This document shows positions 1-32,054 of a stretch of DNA of 32,427 nucleotides, in pieces (position 1 is the stretch's first letter; each line of letters starts with the position of its first letter). Under the pieces are notes generated by a model, which saw only the letters and a list, made by a program, of their open reading frames with translations, was not told where the DNA came from and made no database searches. The position numbers were made by a program, and so were the translations under genes. This DNA is from a virus (lineage: Duplodnaviria > Caudoviricetes), in IMG/VR virus record IMGVR_UViG_3300044676_000154, positions 1 to 32,427 of that record; one strand, 5' to 3'.

Positions 1-1951
1 GATTAAATGATGCTGGTTGAAATACGCTTCGTGTAGACCAGATGCCCCCAGATGCACTTGATTCAACACCAGCAGTGCCAAATGCTGAACTCGTCTTTCC
101 CACCAGCAGATTGCCGCTTGCATCCCAGCGTCCGGCTTCTGAGTCATCAACTAAAAAAGTTATATTAGATGAACTGGCTGCGCTTCCTTTATCAGATTCA
201 AATTTCAAACTTCCAAAACTGTTAGAAATGCGGCAAGTTCCATAGTTGTCAACAATGTCCAATGCAGCAACTGAATTTGTGCTTATGAAGTTTGCAACAG
301 GGTCAGTTGTTGCAGAATTAACAGTCAGCCCATCAGCCGTGACAGTGCCAGTTACGTCAAGGTTTCCTGACGCATCAACAGTCAACTCATCGTGGTTATC
401 AAGGCCAAGTGTAGCCAGTGAAGCACCTACGTTGGTAACGTCAAACGTACCAAAGGCAACAATGTCTACAGTGTCATTCAGTGCTGCACCTGTTGTTAGT
501 ACAACATTAGAACCATCTGTAGCTGTAAAGTCAGTGCCAGCAATCAGCTTAACACCATTGAGGTAGACATCTACATAACCAGCATCATAGGTAGCAGCAA
601 AGCTAGTCTGCCCAGCAGTGGCTGTGTAGGTCTGACGCTCAGATGTACCATTGACAGACGAACCAGCATTAACAAAGCCAGAACCGTCATAGACCTTCAT
701 CACATCGTTAGTGGTATCAAACCACAAGTCACCCTCTGTAGGTGATGATGGGGCTGTCGCTGAGATGAAGTAGGTATTGGCGAATGAGTTAATGTCAGTA
801 AGGTTGGTTGCTACAGTGTTGACGTTAGCAATGTCTGTACCTACCGCATTGACGTTAGCAATAGAACCAGCAACAATACCGATATCTGTTGCATCCGCTG
901 CTACTGCATTAATATTTGTAGCATTACTAGCTACGTTGTTAATGTTTGTAGCGTTACCTGCAACTGATGTAATGTTAGCTGAATTAGCAGCGACATTGTT
1001 TACGTTAGTGATGTTACTAGCTACTGTACCGATGTCAGTAGCATCACCAGCTACAGCAGTAACATTAGCAGAGATACCAGCTACTGTTGCTACATTGCCT
1101 GAGATACCTGCTACTGTGTTTACATTAGAGATACTTGAAGCTACTGTACCAATGTCTGTGGCATCTGCTGCTACTGCTGTTACATCAGACGAAATACCAG
1201 CTACTGTATTAACACTAGCAATGTTAGTGCCTACTGTATTAACATTAGCAATAGAATTAGCTACTGTATCAATTTCAGACACAGCTTCATTCAAGTCATT
1301 GGCAGCAGTTTCAATCTCAGAGATAGCCTCATTCAAGTCGTTGGCTACTGTAATAACATCTGCAATGTTAGTAGCTACTGTATTAACACTAGCAATGTTA
1401 GTGGATACTGTGCTAATATCAGCAGCATCTGAAACAACTGCTGTTACATCGCTTGCGATACCTGCAACAGTTGTTACATCAGAAGCAATACCTGCTACTG
1501 TAGTGATGTTAGGTAGGTTTGTAGAAATAAACTGCTTGTTTACAGCATCGTTATTGTTTACAGGAGTCCCAACATTCTTAATAATGCTACCCTGTGCATC
1601 CCACTTGTTATCCGTATCTAGTGCGATTGCGTCACCAACACGGTCAATAGCTTCCTGAGAAGCATGGAAAGTCTGGATACTAGAATTATCTAGGTCTTCT
1701 TCAGTAAGAACTGAACCAGACGCAAAGTCAACTGCACGTGTTGTAAGGTCTGTAGTACGGCGAACCTGTACCAGAGTACCAATAGCAGGTGCAGATGTTA
1801 GTTGTACAGTAGAGGCTGAAGGAAAAGTCAGGCCAGTTTCAGCCACACCATCTACTGTAACACTTATTTCAGAAGTGTTCTGATATGTAAAGGTAATAGA
1901 GAACTGTGTGGTAGTTCCATTACCTGTATAGTTGTCGTATGAAAAAGCCAT
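1..1951 (-). CDS. gp17: Tail fibre protein (T7 gp17-like N-terminal anchor), 3' end beyond the window
   Basis: Absent from the ORF track; segments translated by hand from ATG at 1951. N-terminus MAFSYDNYTGNGTTTQFSITFTY...VQVRRTTDLTTRAVDFASGSVLTEEDLD is a gp17-type anchor. It is followed by a repeat shaft, a GDLWFDT module, a TATAGQTSF...VYLNGVKL module and RWDASGNLLVGKT near the window edge, all in the same frame. Confidence 0.93.
   Translation of the reverse strand, partial: MAFSYDNYTGNGTTTQFSITFTYQNTSEISVTVDGVAETGLTFPSASTVQLTSAPAIGTLVQVRRTTDLTTRAVDFASGSVLTEEDLDNSSIQTFHASQEAIDRVGDAIALDTDNKWDAQGSIIKNVGTPVNNNDAVNKQFISTNLPNITTVAGIASDVTTVAGIASDVTAVVSDAADISTVSTNIASVNTVATNIADVITVANDLNEAISEIETAANDLNEAVSEIDTVANSIANVNTVGTNIASVNTVAGISSDVTAVAADATDIGTVASSISNVNTVAGISGNVATVAGISANVTAVAGDATDIGTVASNITNVNNVAANSANITSVAGNATNINNVASNATNINAVAADATDIGIVAGSIANVNAVGTDIANVNTVATNLTDINSFANTYFISATAPSSPTEGDLWFDTTNDVMKVYDGSGFVNAGSSVNGTSERQTYTATAGQTSFAATYDAGYVDVYLNGVKLIAGTDFTATDGSNVVLTTGAALNDTVDIVAFGTFDVTNVGASLATLGLDNHDELTVDASGNLDVTGTVTADGLTVNSATTDPVANFISTNSVAALDIVDNYGTCRISNSFGSLKFESDKGSAASSSNITFLVDDSEAGRWDASGNLLVGKTSSAFGTAGVESSASGGIWSTRSVFQPASFN
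780..1515 (-). repeat. Tandem 10-11 aa repeats (TVAGISSDVT / TVATNIANVN) in the tail fibre shaft
   Basis: About 30-33 nt degenerate periodicity, with gctactgt recurring on the + strand; includes a 14-aa duplication ANDLNEA(I/V)SEI(E/D)T. Confidence 0.9.
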
Positions 1952-1962
1952 TTGTTTTCCTA

Positions 1963-17514: not shown

Positions 17515-17532
17515 CTAATAGGGGTACTTTAG
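17515..17532 (-). promoter_or_regulatory. Putative phage RNAP promoter (late genes)
   Basis: CTAAAGTACCCCTATTAG; the 13-nt core is identical at three sites; lies at the replication/structural boundary and overlaps the nrdJ stop. Confidence 0.75.
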
Positions 17533-19427
17533 ATATCAACCAACTCACAAGCACCAGCAGTACAGGCTAGAGTTTGGCTACCAGAAGTAGTATCTTCCTT
17601 CTCATACAGGGATAAAGCAGTCCAATCAATAGACTCAGGCATCTGTTCCTTAAGTTCTAGGTATTGTTCTTCTTCAATCTCTTGATAGGGAGCCTGTGCA
17701 TAGCTGTGGTCACTGTGAGGTAGGAAAGAAATACCTGAGCAGATGTCAAAGTTCTTGTACACCCAGGCTCCTACTTCCATCCACTCAGCATCCTTGACTG
17801 TAATAGTCACTGATGGTTTATGCTCACACCAGTTCAGTGCATAGTTCTTCCACAGTTCTAGCTGCTCTAGTGCAGTCATATCATTACGAGTAACAGCACC
17901 AGATGGTGACTTAGTAGGGAAGCTGAACACTGTAGTAGAGTCAGGCTTCATCACACATGGTTCAGCAGGGATACCACTGTCCTTCATAAACTGTGTTAGT
18001 GGGTCTTTGTTATCACCACGTACAGTACGAATGTAGTATGCGCTGTGTCGTGCATGGATACCTGAAGCTGTATCAGTTAGCTGCGATACTGTACCACTAG
18101 GTTTAACGCAGGTGATAGCAGTAGAAGCAGTCACACCAAGCTTGTCAGCATAGACACGATTGACATCAATGGCCTGTGCCTTAAGCTCTTGTAGCCAGCG
18201 AGGGCTATCAACAGTCTTAGACAGTACAGCATTGTCCATGATACCTGTAAGGGAGACACCAAGTAGACGTTCTTCTTCAGTATTCTTCTGCCAAATCTTA
18301 CGCAAGTATGGCATCTTAGTAAAGGTAGACTGTGCTGTACCAAGAATAGTAGCTAGGCGTACCTTGCGGCGTAGGCTTTCAAGGTCATCATGCTCACGTA
18401 CCACCACCTCTGTTAGATTACAGAACTGGTAAGGGCGTAGGATAATCTCAGAGCAAGGGTTAGTACCCCACTCATGTCCTGTCTCTCTACGTCCATTCAT
18501 CTTAACGTGGTTGTCTGCTGCTGTACGTGAGAAGATACCACGCTCACCAGACTTAGACTCTACTAGTGAGAGCCACTCACGCATGAACCCTTCCATGTCA
18601 GGCTTGTCTGTGTAGGCTACAGAGTTATTAGCCAACGCACGTTGACCCTCATTCTCCCACCACTGACCAGACTTAGCGTGTGCCATACGTCCATCACTAA
18701 GGTTAGACAGGCTAATCATAGCTGATCTACGCACACCACCAACAACTACTACCTCGCCAATCTTACACATGATGTCGTGGCATTCAATGCTGGTTAGCTT
18801 ACGTCCTGCTGCTACCTTAAACTTAGCTACAACGAACTTGAACAAGTCATCAAGTGGTTCAGGTCCACTAGCTCTACCACCAAAGGTCTTGAGCCTTGCA
18901 CCTGCTGGGCGAATAGCAGACAAGTCCCACTTAGGAATGTCCCCTGAGTACAGATGAGACAGCAGTTTGTGTAATGCTTTAGCCCATCCTTCCTTGCTAT
19001 CCTTAACTGCAATGATATCATCACTGTAGTCTAATGCCTCAGGTACATCAGGTAGCTTGACAATAGACTGACGCTCCACTGAGAAGCCTACACCTGTACC
19101 ACATAGTAGGATAAACATAGCCTCATCAAAGGCACGAATATGATCCACTGGTAGATAGCTACAGTTATAGATACAGGTATTATCTCTGTCTGCTGCTACA
19201 CCTGCTGTCATCAATGCCCTCATAGAAGGCATGACCTCAAGGTTGATGATAGCTTCTTCAATTTCTTCTAAGTCTTTAGGGGGTAGGCCTGTCTTAGCAA
19301 TGTAGTTGATGTATCGCTGCACTGTCTCAGGCCAAGTCTCTCGCCTGTTCTCATCCTCTAGCCATCGTGCATATCTACTGGTGGCAATAAAAGTCTGGTA
19401 GTCTGTTGGTAGGTAATTGTTTCTCAT
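17529..19427 (-). CDS. nrdJ: Class II (adenosylcobalamin-dependent) ribonucleotide reductase
   Basis: SRYARW...RRETW, NC, GTGVGFS, VVGGVRRSA, TNPCSEI, TCVKPSGTVS and a C-terminal CTAGAC redox tail; no beta subunit in the window. Confidence 0.9.
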   Translation of the reverse strand: MRNNYLPTDYQTFIATSRYARWLEDENRRETWPETVQRYINYIAKTGLPPKDLEEIEEAIINLEVMPSMRALMTAGVAADRDNTCIYNCSYLPVDHIRAFDEAMFILLCGTGVGFSVERQSIVKLPDVPEALDYSDDIIAVKDSKEGWAKALHKLLSHLYSGDIPKWDLSAIRPAGARLKTFGGRASGPEPLDDLFKFVVAKFKVAAGRKLTSIECHDIMCKIGEVVVVGGVRRSAMISLSNLSDGRMAHAKSGQWWENEGQRALANNSVAYTDKPDMEGFMREWLSLVESKSGERGIFSRTAADNHVKMNGRRETGHEWGTNPCSEIILRPYQFCNLTEVVVREHDDLESLRRKVRLATILGTAQSTFTKMPYLRKIWQKNTEEERLLGVSLTGIMDNAVLSKTVDSPRWLQELKAQAIDVNRVYADKLGVTASTAITCVKPSGTVSQLTDTASGIHARHSAYYIRTVRGDNKDPLTQFMKDSGIPAEPCVMKPDSTTVFSFPTKSPSGAVTRNDMTALEQLELWKNYALNWCEHKPSVTITVKDAEWMEVGAWVYKNFDICSGISFLPHSDHSYAQAPYQEIEEEQYLELKEQMPESIDWTALSLYEKEDTTSGSQTLACTAGACELVDI

Positions 19428-20714: not shown

Positions 20715-20877
20715 CTTTAATATCCTCTTCCTTCTGAGCATTACGTAGTATACGTAGTCCTGTCTGTACCTGAATGTAGTCTAGGTATGCCTCAACAATC
20801 CACTTAACACTGAGACATATACTGACACTCAGGAATGAGCAGGTTAGTATTAACTTCCATACAAAATCAAAGTCCAT
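20695..20877 (-). CDS. Small membrane protein
   Basis: 60 aa with an N-terminal hydrophobic helix; overlaps both neighbours and fills the gap. Confidence 0.65.
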   Translation of the reverse strand: MDFDFVWKLILTCSFLSVSICLSVKWIVEAYLDYIQVQTGLRILRNAQKEEDIKDDPTAY

Positions 20878-21361
20878 GTGTCATCCTATGTTTAACTAAG
20901 TATTCAAATGCTCTGTGTGCATTGTCAGGATTATCCTGTAGCTGGCCTATGCCTGTGTTACAAGGCTTACATATCCAACCCCTGAATGTGTCACTCTCAT
21001 GGCAGTGGTCAAGTACCCATGTCTGCATAGACTTCTGACCATGCCTACCAATCTCTTGAATGGTACGTGTGCAGATAGGACAGGAGTAGTCGGGATCAGG
21101 ATAGTCATGTTCACTACGTAACTGACGTATCAGTTGCTGGTGTCCTGACTTACATGAGCGACAGGTTCTCTTGATCTCTCCTGACTGCATTACATTATAG
21201 TTAGAGATATCCTGATAGATACCACACTTGATACACTCTACTTCCTCAATGGGTGTCTGACCAGTTTCTTCCATACTTGTATTCGCTGTCAAGTCTGCAC
21301 CTGAAGTTGAAGTGCTTTTCAACATCCCGCATACATCCAAGAATAATTCTCCCTGCTTCAT
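20867..21361 (-). CDS. Endonuclease VII-like (His-Me) nuclease with N-terminal Zn finger
   Basis: CIKC...CRSC, then CPIC...LDHCH...FRGWICKPCNTGIG...DN. Start uncertain; overlaps the DNA pol 3' end. Confidence 0.88.
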   Translation of the reverse strand: MKQGELFLDVCGMLKSTSTSGADLTANTSMEETGQTPIEEVECIKCGIYQDISNYNVMQSGEIKRTCRSCKSGHQQLIRQLRSEHDYPDPDYSCPICTRTIQEIGRHGQKSMQTWVLDHCHESDTFRGWICKPCNTGIGQLQDNPDNAHRAFEYLVKHRMTHGL

Positions 21362-25806: not shown

Positions 25807-25823
25807 CTAGAGGGGTACTTTAG
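25807..25823 (-). promoter_or_regulatory. Putative phage RNAP promoter (replication genes)
   Basis: CTAAAGTACCCCTCTAG between the RNAP stop and the SSB start, the position of T7 phi1.1. Confidence 0.75.
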
Positions 25824-25825
25824 GA

Positions 25826-27472
25826 TTAGGCAAAGAAGTAATCAGACTTAAGTACTAGTGCTAAGTCTAGCTTACCCATAGCTGGTGGGTAAGGTACGTC
25901 ATTGGTTCCTAAAGTTCTTACTGCATGATCCCTCAGTTCATTGAGGACATCATGTGTTTCATACATATTAACAAACTCACTACGCAGTATGTCAGACATG
26001 ACAGGCATTGATGTACTGTGTGTACCATAGCTGTCATGTACCATTGCAAAGTCACGCAATCCATACTGCCTACACTTGTTAATAGTCTTAGTCATTGCGG
26101 CTGCATCCAGAGAGTGAATGAAGTTAGGGCTACTGCCCAAACCTGTGCGCCTCTTGTTTACTGTATCCTTTATATCTTCAACAATATTGAGGCGTACCAT
26201 CTCACCATTGATGTGCGTCTTGATACGTTTAGTCTCAGTGTTACTGTAGTGCTGGACAACCACCCAACCTGTAGGAGTTATCCATTCCATGTGCTTGGTG
26301 TGGTCTGAGTATACCTCGCTGATCTGTTTGATGTATGACATTACCTTACTAGCTGACTGGATCACATCACTGATGGCATCCCAAACAAAAGCAGCTAGGT
26401 AATTACTAGCAGGGAATAGGTCAACACCGAAGACGTTCTCCTTACCTGCCTCTATCTGTTCAGTCATAGCCTCTTGTATGTATGAGCGACAGGCGTGGCG
26501 TGTACCACTGTAGGGTACGATCATAACAGGACGCTTGGTCAGTGACCTGTCAATCCCAAAGGCTAACCACTGCCTAGCTAGTTCACTGTTGTCCTGCTTG
26601 ACACGTGCCAGTGCTTCTTCAGCTACCTCAGTGTAGATATCCTGAGGCACAGCGGCTGGTATAAGATTGGTAGCCCTACCCCCACGCTCATCCCTAAGGA
26701 TGGCTGAGAGGTGCTGTAATCCATTGCAACTGCCATCTGCTGACACAGGGAAGCGTGACTCGTAGCCCCACCCCTGCTTGACTAGTGATGAGAACTCCAT
26801 ACACCAAGCCAGGAATTGATAAGGCTTGTCAGCCTCAAGCCATAGCTGGTTGTCGTATGGGTTGTCAACAATCCTGTGTACCTCATCAGCAAAGTCCCAT
26901 GCCCATGTCTCACGCTGGTCTAGTGTTACCTTGTCATTGCCATACAGATTAGCACCATGAATGCACAACCAACGTGCATCATCCCAACTGTTGATAGGCA
27001 TGGGGCGGCTGAACTCTAGCAATGACTTGCTCCAATCAGCAGACTGAGGTGAGAGGAACGTGCTGCTTGCATACTTGCGGGAACGAAAGTCGTTCTGCCA
27101 CACGTAGAAGAACTCATCGTAGTCTGAGTAGGACTCAGCTACCTGTAGTGTACGCTCTACTTGTATGCGCTTGCTCACGCTTCGGTTGTTAATGGAGTAG
27201 ATACTATTCCTAGTGCGTGACCACTCGCGGAACTCATCCCTCTCACTCTCAGTCATCTCCTTGGGTTCCTTGGTGAATGGGTAGTCAGGCAAGGGAAGAT
27301 CATCCCTCGCTGGTAGCTTACCCCACTGCTGCCCATTGTCCCATACCTGCCTTATTACTTGAAGGAGAGGGCGATTGATACGCCATGCTGTATGCTGTAG
27401 TGCATTCAAGCAGGTGTACTCTTGGTTTAAGTCTGCTTCTCCTAAGCGTCTTAGGTGTTTCTTTAAACTCAT
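25826..27472 (-). CDS. T7-like RNA polymerase, C-terminal catalytic part (thumb/palm/fingers)
   Basis: LQHTAWRIN, DFRSRKY, motif A DGSCNGLQH, motif B RSLTKRPVMIVPY, PNFIHSLDA, motif C HDSYGTH, C-terminal SDYFFA. Confidence 0.96.
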   Translation of the reverse strand: MSLKKHLRRLGEADLNQEYTCLNALQHTAWRINRPLLQVIRQVWDNGQQWGKLPARDDLPLPDYPFTKEPKEMTESERDEFREWSRTRNSIYSINNRSVSKRIQVERTLQVAESYSDYDEFFYVWQNDFRSRKYASSTFLSPQSADWSKSLLEFSRPMPINSWDDARWLCIHGANLYGNDKVTLDQRETWAWDFADEVHRIVDNPYDNQLWLEADKPYQFLAWCMEFSSLVKQGWGYESRFPVSADGSCNGLQHLSAILRDERGGRATNLIPAAVPQDIYTEVAEEALARVKQDNSELARQWLAFGIDRSLTKRPVMIVPYSGTRHACRSYIQEAMTEQIEAGKENVFGVDLFPASNYLAAFVWDAISDVIQSASKVMSYIKQISEVYSDHTKHMEWITPTGWVVVQHYSNTETKRIKTHINGEMVRLNIVEDIKDTVNKRRTGLGSSPNFIHSLDAAAMTKTINKCRQYGLRDFAMVHDSYGTHSTSMPVMSDILRSEFVNMYETHDVLNELRDHAVRTLGTNDVPYPPAMGKLDLALVLKSDYFFA

Positions 27473-28242
27473 CTGCGCCTCACTATAGGTAGTTCATCTA
27501 TTGCTGCACCATGATACCCACCACCTGTTACATCAGTCCAATCCTTAGGGACTATGATGCAGGGTGCATACCTTGGCTTGGCTGTCTCAGCATAATCATT
27601 GAATGCCTTGATCCAATCCTCAGTTCCTTTCGTTGCCTTGACTACAGTAACAGTCTTGTTCCTTGCTGTTACCTGCTTGGTTAGCTCAACGATGCCAGTG
27701 TGTACGATTATCAGGTCAATCATACGCAAGCCCACGTGTATCCTGTCAGGCTTAGTCCACTCAGTATCCTTGAACCCATCCTTGTTCATCTTGTGGGTCA
27801 GGCCATAGCGTCTAGCACCATAGGCTTTCTTCATGGCTAGTTTGATTGTATTCTTTGCTATACTTCCTTCACTCTGAACCCACCTATCAAGCCTGTCCTG
27901 GATTTCTAGGTTACCACCTATAGACTGAGCAGCATGGAGCAGCACAGACTTCTTACTGATGGCATCAACTAGAGACACCACTGCTAGGTAGGCTACCTGT
28001 TCAGCATCCATGTCCTTGATACGTGCGTAGGTTATGTCGCGGTTAGACTTTGGGTTTTGTTGTAGGTCAAGGATACCCTTGGCTACATCCTCTACGATAC
28101 GAGACACAATAACCCTGCCATGCAGTGTGTTGGACTCCATGCCTGATGCTACAGCCTTGTCTCTCGCCTTGCGAAATCTATCTATACCACCTGTCATCAT
28201 GTCAGCTTCCAACTCAAGCTGAGTTTCTAAAGTACCCCTCAT
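27469..28242 (-). CDS. T7-like RNA polymerase, N-terminal domain part
   Basis: QLELEADM..GGIDRF, WTKPDRIHVGLRMIDLII..TG and PCIIVPKDWTDVTGGGY correspond to the T7 RNAP N-terminal domain up to about residue 300. Confidence 0.93.
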   Translation of the reverse strand: MRGTLETQLELEADMMTGGIDRFRKARDKAVASGMESNTLHGRVIVSRIVEDVAKGILDLQQNPKSNRDITYARIKDMDAEQVAYLAVVSLVDAISKKSVLLHAAQSIGGNLEIQDRLDRWVQSEGSIAKNTIKLAMKKAYGARRYGLTHKMNKDGFKDTEWTKPDRIHVGLRMIDLIIVHTGIVELTKQVTARNKTVTVVKATKGTEDWIKAFNDYAETAKPRYAPCIIVPKDWTDVTGGGYHGAAIDELPIVRRR

Positions 28243-28244
28243 AG
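28227..28244 (+). promoter_or_regulatory. Third copy of the putative phage promoter, in antisense orientation over the RNAP start codon
   Basis: CTAAAGTACCCCTCATAG on the + strand; same 13-nt core. Confidence 0.55.
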
Positions 28245-28258
28245 TAAGCCCCCTAAGG

Positions 28259-29991: not shown

Positions 29992-30675
29992 CTATTGATT
30001 AGCTTCCATTACTGCTTGTGCAAACCCTCTTGGTGTAGCACTCCTGATATTCTTGGTCTTCATACTCTTACCGCCTAGCTTGCGGTGCTGTGTGCTACTA
30101 CCATAGCTATGACACATCACCTCTCGCTTGTCAGGCATTATAAATCCATTGCCTGTCCAAAGGCAAGTCTTTTTTGAGTACGCATCTCGCGGTGCTATAT
30201 ACTCAGGCCACCTTGGATGGATATCATCAGGTGCTAGGTATCCACCATACTCATAAGGATGAAAGTAATAGTCAGGCTTACGCCATATAGATGCAAGTCT
30301 AGACACAGGATTTTCTATATAGAATGGACACCCTAACTCCATGCCTACATACCCACATAACATAGCATGATGCGCTGCTTCCTGCTGAAATCCTGGATTT
30401 TCCCTCTCTTTATTAGCAAAGTGTGCCGCACCTGATACAGCAAGATCAGTACATACTGGAAAAGCTGACATGAATACAGCCTTGTGCTTGTGCTTGTTGA
30501 TGATAGTCTCCAACACCATAGCACTATGCAGGTCAGCCTTCCAATAGGTGATACCATCTATTGTTTTTTCACCTTCATGCTGTATGTCATACGCATGGCA
30601 CTCATACCCCGCATCTGCCCAAGGTCTAAGTGCCTCACCTGTATAATCATACAGGCTAATCACTTGGTTTCTCAT
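29992..30675 (-). CDS. C5-cytosine DNA methyltransferase-like protein
   Basis: VISLYDYTG (atypical motif I), YDIQ, FPVCTDLAVSG (catalytic PxC), IENPV (motif VI), KKTCLW and RSATPRGFA. Confidence 0.75.
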   Translation of the reverse strand: MRNQVISLYDYTGEALRPWADAGYECHAYDIQHEGEKTIDGITYWKADLHSAMVLETIINKHKHKAVFMSAFPVCTDLAVSGAAHFANKERENPGFQQEAAHHAMLCGYVGMELGCPFYIENPVSRLASIWRKPDYYFHPYEYGGYLAPDDIHPRWPEYIAPRDAYSKKTCLWTGNGFIMPDKREVMCHSYGSSTQHRKLGGKSMKTKNIRSATPRGFAQAVMEANQ

Positions 30676-30783: not shown

Positions 30784-31052
30784 TTGTCTAGCCCCTTTTA
30801 ATATTGGCAGAGGCGGTAGGAATTGAACCCACTCTCTCAGGGTTGGAACCTGATGTGCTACCGTAACACTTCGCCCCTAATAAATCAATAAATATATGTA
30901 GGCAGTTTATCCACATGCCTAGGTGGTAGTCCTTCCTTTCTATCATAGCGTAAATGCTATGGACTAGGTACTTGGTCAAGTCTTACTACATACCACATGA
31001 AAGCCCCTAGTCATGGCTCATGTTTGAAACTTTAGCTATTTGTCTAGCCCCT
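30782..31052. repeat. 15-nt direct repeat ATTTGTCTAGCCCCT flanking the tRNA segment
   Basis: Exact copies at 30782-30796 and 31038-31052. Confidence 0.85.
30805..30878 (-). tRNA. trnW: tRNA-Trp (CCA), with encoded CCA end
   Basis: Cloverleaf: acceptor AGGGGCG/CGCCTCT, D arm GTGT-TACGGTA-GCAC, anticodon arm TCAGG-TTCCAAC-CCTGA, T arm GTGGG-TTCAATT-CCTAC, G73, CCA; 74 nt. Confidence 0.93.
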
Positions 31053-31755
31053 ATCCTACTACAAATCCACTAGTATCTTGCTTGGCTTTGCCTTTGGCAT
31101 ACAAGGCAACAACCACACCTTTAGGATCAAGAAAACGCAAGTCATCCTTGTCACCATCTACCACAGGAAAACCCATGTATGTCTTTGGTATATTGTCCTT
31201 GTGCCTAAACACTACAGCCATATTGCTAGTCTTGCGATCACGCATAGTCTCTAGCACCATGTCACTATAACGCTGGCTTGCCTCGCTATACGATAGCGTT
31301 ATGTGATAGTTCTTTGGCAGTACCTTACTCACCCGCTTGATGTCCTTGGTATAGTCATAGAATTGTATCTCTGGATACTCCCCAGCCATGTCTATATGAC
31401 GTTCCCAATGGATATCACTAGTGCCATTGAGCCTAACCACAGGCTTGATGCCCTTCTTAAGACAGTATTTGCGGAACGCTATCAAGTCGTCATGTAATTG
31501 TGCAATAAACTCGCCACGATTATCCCGCCACAAGATAGTCTTGCGCTGTCTAGCAAGCTGAACACTATTCATAGCACCCCTACCAGCAGTATATAGACAC
31601 CCCGCCTTGCAGCCAGCAAGCACAGCCATAGCGCATATGTTAATGCCCTCTACTGTATCTGCTGGTGCTAAATATAATATGGCAGTCATGTACTCGCTAC
31701 CATCACCTTTAACTGTCTTGGCATTATTACCAACACCTAATAGTTTTAGTTTCAT
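31051..31755 (-). CDS. GP88-like, putative Fe-S/radical-SAM-like protein
   Basis: C-x7-C-x3-C (CAMAVLAGCKAGC), RLNGTSDI, FYDYTK, DGDKDDLRFLD; start moved to MKLKLLG (GAGGAG SD); 234 aa. Confidence 0.7.
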   Translation of the reverse strand: MKLKLLGVGNNAKTVKGDGSEYMTAILYLAPADTVEGINICAMAVLAGCKAGCLYTAGRGAMNSVQLARQRKTILWRDNRGEFIAQLHDDLIAFRKYCLKKGIKPVVRLNGTSDIHWERHIDMAGEYPEIQFYDYTKDIKRVSKVLPKNYHITLSYSEASQRYSDMVLETMRDRKTSNMAVVFRHKDNIPKTYMGFPVVDGDKDDLRFLDPKGVVVALYAKGKAKQDTSGFVVG

Positions 31756-31768
31756 GGCTACTACTCCT

Positions 31769-32054
31769 CTAGCTATTACAAGGTACAACGATTGAAGGGA
31801 GAACAATCGTTGCCCTTTATACGTCATGCTGGACGTTTTGTAAAGCGTCCTGTAATCGCACAACGACTAACAGATAGGTATCCTTGGTGGTTGCTAAAAG
31901 TCCCCTTGCGTCCATAGCGATTAGTCACGCGCCGGAATTGCAAGTTATGCTTACCAATAGGATTAACAGTTACATTCTTGATTGTCTTAAACTTAATCAT
32001 AGCATCTACTCCTAGTGCTGTTATAGGTACACCATTGCACCTTGTAATAGCTAG
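31769..32054. repeat. 20-nt inverted repeat flanking a small early gene
   Basis: ctagctattacaaggtacaa (31769-31788) versus ttgcaccttgtaatagctag (32035-32054): 19/20 complementary. Confidence 0.88.
31824..32000 (-). CDS. Small basic early protein (58 aa)
   Basis: Start moved to MIKFKTIKNV (AGGAG SD); ends RCAITGRF. Confidence 0.7.
   Translation of the reverse strand: MIKFKTIKNVTVNPIGKHNLQFRRVTNRYGRKGTFSNHQGYLSVSRCAITGRFTKRPA

Follow-up and report, generated by a model that had tools for sequence, protein, structure and literature searches.

T7-type RNA polymerases (RNAPs) are, as a textbook property, single-chain enzymes. The window analysed here, a 32,427-base stretch representing part of a T7-like phage genome whose genes lie on the minus strand, encodes its RNAP in two open reading frames, which raises the question of whether the phage makes a natural two-chain enzyme and, if so, how the chains are produced and brought together. 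The small subunit gene (257 aa; 27469..28242, minus strand) covers the T7 N-terminal domain, residues about 29–300 with the C-linker included, while the large subunit gene (548 aa; 25826..27472, minus strand) covers the thumb, palm and fingers, motifs A, B and C, and the specificity loop. The arrangement described in the initial annotation was found in the sequence: an ATGA stop/start overlap (27469..27472, minus strand), and a GAGG Shine-Dalgarno site for the large subunit (27478..27481, minus strand), 5 nt before the second ATG and within Val-Arg codons of the small subunit. The domain content was that of a T7-type RNAP collinear with T7, with Pfam RPOL_N on the small subunit (E 3.8e-11) and RNA_pol on the large one (E 5.8e-103). 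PHROG 414 (816 positions) was covered by the small subunit over 4–266 and by the large over 270–816, and alignment with T7 RNAP matched them to residues 35–298 and 302–883, respectively. Since R255 of the small subunit aligns with T7 residue 298, and K4 of the large subunit with residue 302, the break falls at T7 299–301 and nothing is lost, which agrees with the position of about residue 300 first estimated by eye. The catalytic motifs claimed to be intact were indeed present, namely A (D246), B (R309, K313, Y321) and C (H479, D480), together with the YFFA end. The AF2 models had pLDDT values of 84.6 (small subunit, mean) and 87.2 (large subunit), the latter matching T7 RNAP in Foldseek with a TMq of 0.88. 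The specificity-loop hairpin (large-subunit residues 413–430; 26183..26236, minus strand), located by alignment with the T7 loop, is a beta hairpin in the model and co-varies with promoter type.

That the split is an assembly or sequencing error, or a dead gene, has a negligible probability: the window is an uncultured assembly, and lesions do occur near the site, since the distant locus L368 has a one-off 13-nt deletion there that leaves no start codon near it, but the split recurs in 323 sequences, across independent assemblies, and both of its halves have dN/dS ratios of ∼0.1. The 1-nt indel error that the initial annotation had proposed to look for was absent from the assembled contigs (which, rather than raw reads, provide the junction support): gap-free contigs crossed the junction in 7 of 8 runs, from 6 studies (runs X4, X5, X8, X6, X11, X12 and X14), no run among them being marked as a potential source, and no bridging piece was found among those listed for X10. 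A compensating 1-nt insertion/deletion at 27504–27508 was seen only in one extra, diverged contig in each of X4 and X6. Among 49 distant control loci, 45 read through the site, 3 were cut by contig ends and 1 was broken. The deletion in L368 (L368:1226-1235), in a distant phage and with no new start codon, is itself either a lesion or an assembly error.

The classified set comprised 349 loci plus the window; the loci overlap and share ancestry, and counts are therefore not independent. Of these 350 sequences, 323 were split at the same site, 21 were fused and 6 incomplete; at the gene level, the RNAP thus departed from the one-polypeptide form in 323 of the 344 scorable sequences. The split loci reduced to 183 distinct junctions, and clustering of the 275 complete large chains gave 80 groups at 90% identity and 9 at 60%. 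Instead of all close relatives being fused, the 21 fused loci were all at most 44% identical to the window's large chain, and the split loci (315 with enough overlap) at least 48%. A protein search with the small chain returned 132 relatives of 141–450 aa; 101 of the 120 listed stop 3–4 residues past an LPIV-type motif, and most of the remaining 19 stop at the same place with a variant motif. Longer forms of the small chain numbered 2 among 2191 candidates, with identities of 40% and 25%. Median dN/dS values of 0.107 for the small chain and 0.091 for the large one (73 close pairs) indicate that both halves are under purifying selection. Catalytic motifs A, B and C and the C-terminal end were retained in 269, 272, 275 and 275 of the 275 large subunits, respectively, and the DX2GR motif reads DFRSR in 192 of them.

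Another possibility is that the junction is recoded (by a −1 frameshift, readthrough or a ribosome hop), yielding one fused 805-aa polymerase for which the second start is incidental. This is very unlikely. The frame classes favour it in part, the −1 class accounting for 155 of the 181 scored junctions, and the window's second frame has 7 open codons ahead of its ATG; however, 14 junctions belong to the +1 class and 12 are in frame, so that all three classes occur, and at four loci whole genes separate the halves (one ORF at L219, two at L236, one, thyX, at L037, and five at L238). A single recoding event is excluded by these three frame offsets and intervening genes. The stop-to-start gaps of the 181 scored junctions (2 of the 183, without the motif used, were dropped) were −4 in 123 cases, the geometry of the window, −1 in 29, 0 in 1, +1 in 12 and +3 in 8, with one each of +8, +11, +14, +19, 219, 307, 690 and 975; the +19 junction is a short tandem duplication of the junction. 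A conserved frame offset accompanied by a shift signal was not found: only 6 of 183 junctions have a slippery heptamer close to the stop, and in 4 no open stretch of the second frame precedes the start. As initially claimed, the window's junction contains no homopolymer and no slippery heptamer before the stop; a TTTAAAG lies just past the second start, in a position unable to fuse the frames, and no stable RNA structure was detected at the junction (z −0.31). A start codon was present at every junction (183/183; 171 ATG, 11 TTG and 1 GTG).

The codons that form the Shine-Dalgarno site are informative in this respect. The Arg codon concerned is AGG in 158 of 173 tight junctions, a codon that makes up 26% of the 2950 other Arg codons. 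The spaced junctions differ according to what follows the stop: the 3 with an inserted gene starting there have AGG, and the 5 at which no gene begins have CGN. This is the pattern that selection on the ribosome-binding site predicts, the sequences being related ones. Both the break and the Shine-Dalgarno site, whose sharing by independent genomes had been put forward as a check, are features common to the clade, and the split is natural and set up for reinitiation from a Shine-Dalgarno site of its own. An intron at the break was rejected, as no Rfam intron was found in the window or in the four loci with inserts; so was a split intein, the halves ending and beginning with polymerase residues, and a homing-endonuclease origin, for which there was no match among the inserted ORFs scanned (7 proteins). 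The near-identical polymerases of L238 and L236 have 5 and 2 small genes, respectively, between their halves (L238:2779-3758; L236:6777-7081), the junction therefore acting as a gene-insertion spot.

Comparison with T7 RNAP defines what each chain would do. The C-linker, residues 251–296, is the final part of the T7 N-terminal domain according to PMC11617373, so the small chain is the whole of that domain. The proposed separation of a promoter-binding N-terminal domain from the catalytic core stood in one part, the small chain containing the whole domain with the C-linker, but failed in another, since the promoter specificity loop (T7 residues 739–772 in bioRxiv 10.1101/140871) resides in the catalytic chain. 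Promoter recognition would therefore be shared, and the small chain would not be a swappable specificity factor. The tolerance of T7 RNAP to splitting at about residue 301, to which the initial annotation had pointed, is documented in the supplement of PMC4299498, which gives a seam at 301–302, with splits at 301 or 302 active in a bisection screen. Opto-T7RNAP(302), split at 302/303 and equipped with light-gated dimerisers, works and has the lowest dark (basal) activity of the variants described in bioRxiv 10.1101/140871; halves cut here therefore need not associate well unaided, which suggests that the natural pair would need a better interface than that of T7. The engineered enzymes resemble the present one in being cut within one or two residues of the same place and in having fragments that are active when co-expressed or dimerised; the clade's split, unlike theirs, is natural, has no added dimerisation domains and is maintained by selection.

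A two-chain relative in another phage, N4 RNAPII, had also been named, and PMC4496689 does describe gp15 and gp16 as the products of two adjacent genes that form a T7-family heterodimer, cut after the thumb and DX2GR; the origin and advantage of this fission are there called unclear. Both systems thus have two adjacent genes for non-overlapping parts of T7 RNAP, but at different cuts. On the window's large subunit, the end of N4 gp15 maps to residue 161 and the beginning of gp16 to about 160; both alignments are weak (E 2e-4 and 3e-6), and PHROG 2051 agrees with them. DFRSR occupies large-subunit residues 128–132, and with the N4 cut at ∼160 the cut in the window's clade lies ∼160 residues upstream of N4's. 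N4 RNAPII has a truncated N-terminal domain and needs gp2, whereas the window phage has a full-length domain and a T7-like genome; the N4-type combination of a cut after the thumb and DX2GR with a truncated N-terminal domain was not found in the window. Neither a virion RNAP nor a gp2 cofactor of the N4 kind was detected among the 36 proteins scanned from this incomplete genome. With the one-chain RNAPs of T7 and the Autographiviridae (PF14700 plus PF00940; PHROG 414), the pair shares full-length collinearity, core fold and motifs, a position between the early genes and those for SSB, endonuclease, primase and DNA polymerase, and the 17-base promoter geometry. It differs from them in being encoded by two genes, with up to five unrelated genes between them in the clade, and in that only two forward promoters were seen in 32 kb. 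A literature search outside subscription journals found no report of a natural split at this site; the word 'split' is absent from the main text of the marine Autographiviridae paper PMC11092137, and no natural split was found in the available parts of PMC13029058, PMC10134795 and PMC9145550.

The RNAP is best regarded, with high confidence, as a coupled two-chain enzyme present throughout the clade, whose two products are likely to assemble non-covalently into one working polymerase. Ribosomes ending the small-subunit gene would restart on the large one at the Shine-Dalgarno site within the last codons, giving roughly matched amounts. The small-chain tail, equivalent to the T7 C-linker region, would dock on the core and leave the N-terminal domain able to rotate between initiation and elongation. 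This conserved C-terminal tail (residues 223–257; 27472..27576, minus strand) has 8 invariant residues among its 35 positions (50 sequences aligned) and low pLDDT values of 46–53 when the subunit is folded alone, the remainder being predicted to fold by itself; from conservation and model we infer that it is a docking arm for the large-subunit core. The assembled enzyme would read TCTAAAGTACCCC-type promoters, the small chain attending to the upstream AT-rich part and to melting, and the large chain providing specificity.

It is improbable, albeit somewhat less so than recoding, that the small chain acts as a dissociable initiation factor, which the core would bind at promoters and then release or exchange. 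Mitochondrial RNAP does bind and release or exchange initiation factors. Cutting behind the C-linker releases the N-terminal domain as a whole, the small chain is predicted to fold alone except for its tail, and engineered halves cut at 302 are nearly silent until forced together (bioRxiv 10.1101/140871), all of which would suit such a factor. In elongating T7 RNAP, however, the RNA exit channel is built by the H subdomain, a part of the N-terminal domain (PMC11617373), so that the N-terminal domain would be needed throughout. Tight coupling fits 1:1 production, and the pairwise identities of the two halves correlate (Spearman 0.84), although linkage would give the same result.

The origin of the pair was examined in large-chain and small-chain RNAP trees (41 and 34 selected rows, respectively, without a mixture model). 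The large-chain tree placed three stand-alone cores and the split forms in a group with the fused proteins P0121, P0125 and P0135 (99/99); constraining the split forms to one clade was not rejected (p-AU 0.546), a result that does not show such a clade. In the small-chain tree, fused P0121, which is 50% identical to the large subunit, was sister to all split forms plus P0125 (95/95). P0125 (808 aa, fused) had a long branch and was placed within the split clade by both free trees, and its junction is about four residues shorter than those of T7 and P0121; it is possibly a re-fusion, or else its placement a branch-length artefact. The simplest interpretation of these trees is that an ancestor resembling P0121 underwent a single fission. 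The stand-alone cores P0126, P0140 and P0136 are of 538–557 aa and 40–42% identity. P0126 and P0140 (557 aa) group with the clade, their split status being judged from length and start only, and P0136, which groups with fused proteins, may represent a separate split or have a wrongly called start.

There are exactly three occurrences of CTAAAGTACCCCT in the window: one following the large-chain stop, one ahead of the late genes and one, at 28227–28239, in inverted orientation. The first belongs to a predicted phage promoter for the replication genes (25807..25824, minus strand), directly after the large-subunit stop, where a like motif is found clade-wide; the second to a predicted promoter for the late (virion) genes (17516..17533, minus strand), after the ribonucleotide reductase gene; and the third to an inverted predicted promoter (28226..28243, plus strand) in which −3 to −1 are the complement of the small-subunit start codon and the predicted +1 is at 28243. 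Each of the three copies is consistent with a binding part of 13 bases, an AT-rich part of 4 and a purine at +1. Variants of the motif after the large-chain stop track the specificity-loop sequence across the clade, the promoter being identified by this co-variation and by position only. Beyond the inverted copy lies the GGGGG Shine-Dalgarno site of the small subunit (28249..28253, minus strand), whose complement occupies positions +7 to +11 of the predicted antisense transcript. Scans for sigma-70 promoters and terminators remained at chance level.

The inverted copy is confined to part of the clade. Within the window's subclade (62% identity or more; 41 representatives), an inverted copy of the phage's own promoter was found on the small-subunit start codon in 41 of 41 cases, always with −3 to −1 aligned, versus none of the 33 representatives tested in the outer group (39 in all). 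Over −11 to −5 the inverted site matched the own promoter at 6.68 of 7 positions, compared with 4.39 for shuffled pairings, and none of 10000 shuffles scored as high, in a test that ignores relatedness. Palindromes before the small gene did not separate the subgroups (26/41 versus 18/36). The small-subunit start codon is ATG in 26 of the 41 representatives and TTG in 15; TTG starts, at 15 of 41 small and 11 of 183 large subunits, hint at selection for low polymerase levels.

A copy of the phage's own promoter inverted over the start codon of the first RNAP gene is new here and suggests autorepression. In this subclade only, the enzyme would bind the inverted promoter on its own start codon and fire an antisense RNA over the ribosome-binding site and the early genes. 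The bound polymerase would meet incoming early transcription head-on, the antisense RNA would mask the ribosome-binding site, and the large chain would be shut off as well through coupling. Judging from the position and conservation of the site, we lean toward negative feedback of this kind on RNAP synthesis, with modest confidence. A function other than feedback, in replication or end processing (primer RNA toward the left end) or as a block on early-gene read-through, is possible but somewhat doubtful, and would change this regulatory step alone. For Phikmvviruses, a reversed phage promoter in the early region has been proposed to stop early-gene read-through (PMC10914365), and in the window no real plus-strand gene was found past 28243. 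However, the site keeps its exact register with the start codon in all 41 representatives, at the price of dictating the first five residues, and neither a primer nor a blocking role would need this position. P001 of LUZ19, a Phikmvvirus, is similarly a single antisense promoter that lies in the early region and serves the phage's own RNAP, with transcripts running over the structural genes gp47–gp49 to the right genome end (PMC10914365); the window's inverted promoter differs from it in overlapping the RNAP start codon and pointing over the RNAP ribosome-binding site.

The full proposal, a tentative one that may well fail in some part, is that a two-chain T7-family RNAP arose naturally a second time, by an independent route: the entire moving N-terminal domain would have become a gene product of its own with an evolved docking tail, dose would be self-controlled by a reverse promoter on the start codon, and the fission would be reversible, with P0125 as a re-fusion. 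If true, it would provide a family of two-input polymerases that assemble by themselves, ready for use and with at least seven promoter types, and synthetic biology would gain natural split polymerases with matched promoters. A second and widespread fission at a site other than that of N4, together with fused sisters and a possible re-fusion, makes the question of origin and advantage testable. Since the passage from initiation to elongation involves rotation of the very domain that is set free here, the pair would probe this switch without a covalent link. It also carries a warning, namely that split RNAP genes are easily taken for frameshift errors or lost from RNAP surveys.

As for the phage itself, the window fits the Autographiviridae, as judged from genes and RNAP trees only, in having its own RNAP gene and in carrying early, replication and virion genes that follow a T7-like order along a single strand. 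From the early genes onwards the order is RNAP, SSB, endonuclease, primase-helicase, DNA polymerase, exonuclease, MazG and ribonucleotide reductase, followed by the portal, scaffold, capsid, tail and internal virion genes. The runs containing window sequence were mostly estuary metagenomes. No cultured relative was found: the nearest phage records among the matches listed were 34% (small chain) and 39% (large chain) identical, and blastn returned two short patches. Its DNA polymerase is ∼50% identical to those of Roseobacter CRP phages and one pelagiphage; the RNAP of CRP-227 is one gene. No prophage of the split-RNAP clade was found among 14 genome loci, all 14 scoring as fused. Among 401 genomes of one order, 6 gave a match, in every case within an open frame (558–948 aa), and a split prophage RNAP was not confirmed there. 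An integrase gene was found just upstream of the small-subunit gene in 23 of 28 cases in the outer group, and in none of the 31 with enough sequence in the inner group. In 10 of 14 outer-group loci checked, a tRNA-Leu(TAA) gene also lies just upstream of the small-subunit gene (e.g. L219:806-894, L236:5728-5816 and L238:1731-1819), which is likely to be the attachment site of temperate members; this region could be used for host finding.

Other features of the window were recorded. A probable tail-fibre gene (1–1952, minus strand), its N-terminus recognised by eye, runs off the left end, the genome being incomplete; plus-strand ORFs at 42–1658 were rejected as genes, being shadows of it. The early region contains a tRNA-Trp(CCA) gene (30805–30878, minus strand), as well as a DNA methyltransferase gene (PHROG 757) and a GP88-family gene (29992–30675 and 31051–31773, minus strand). 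In the interval between the DNA polymerase and exonuclease genes lies an Endonuclease VII-type gene (20867–21361, minus strand), possibly a free-standing homing endonuclease.
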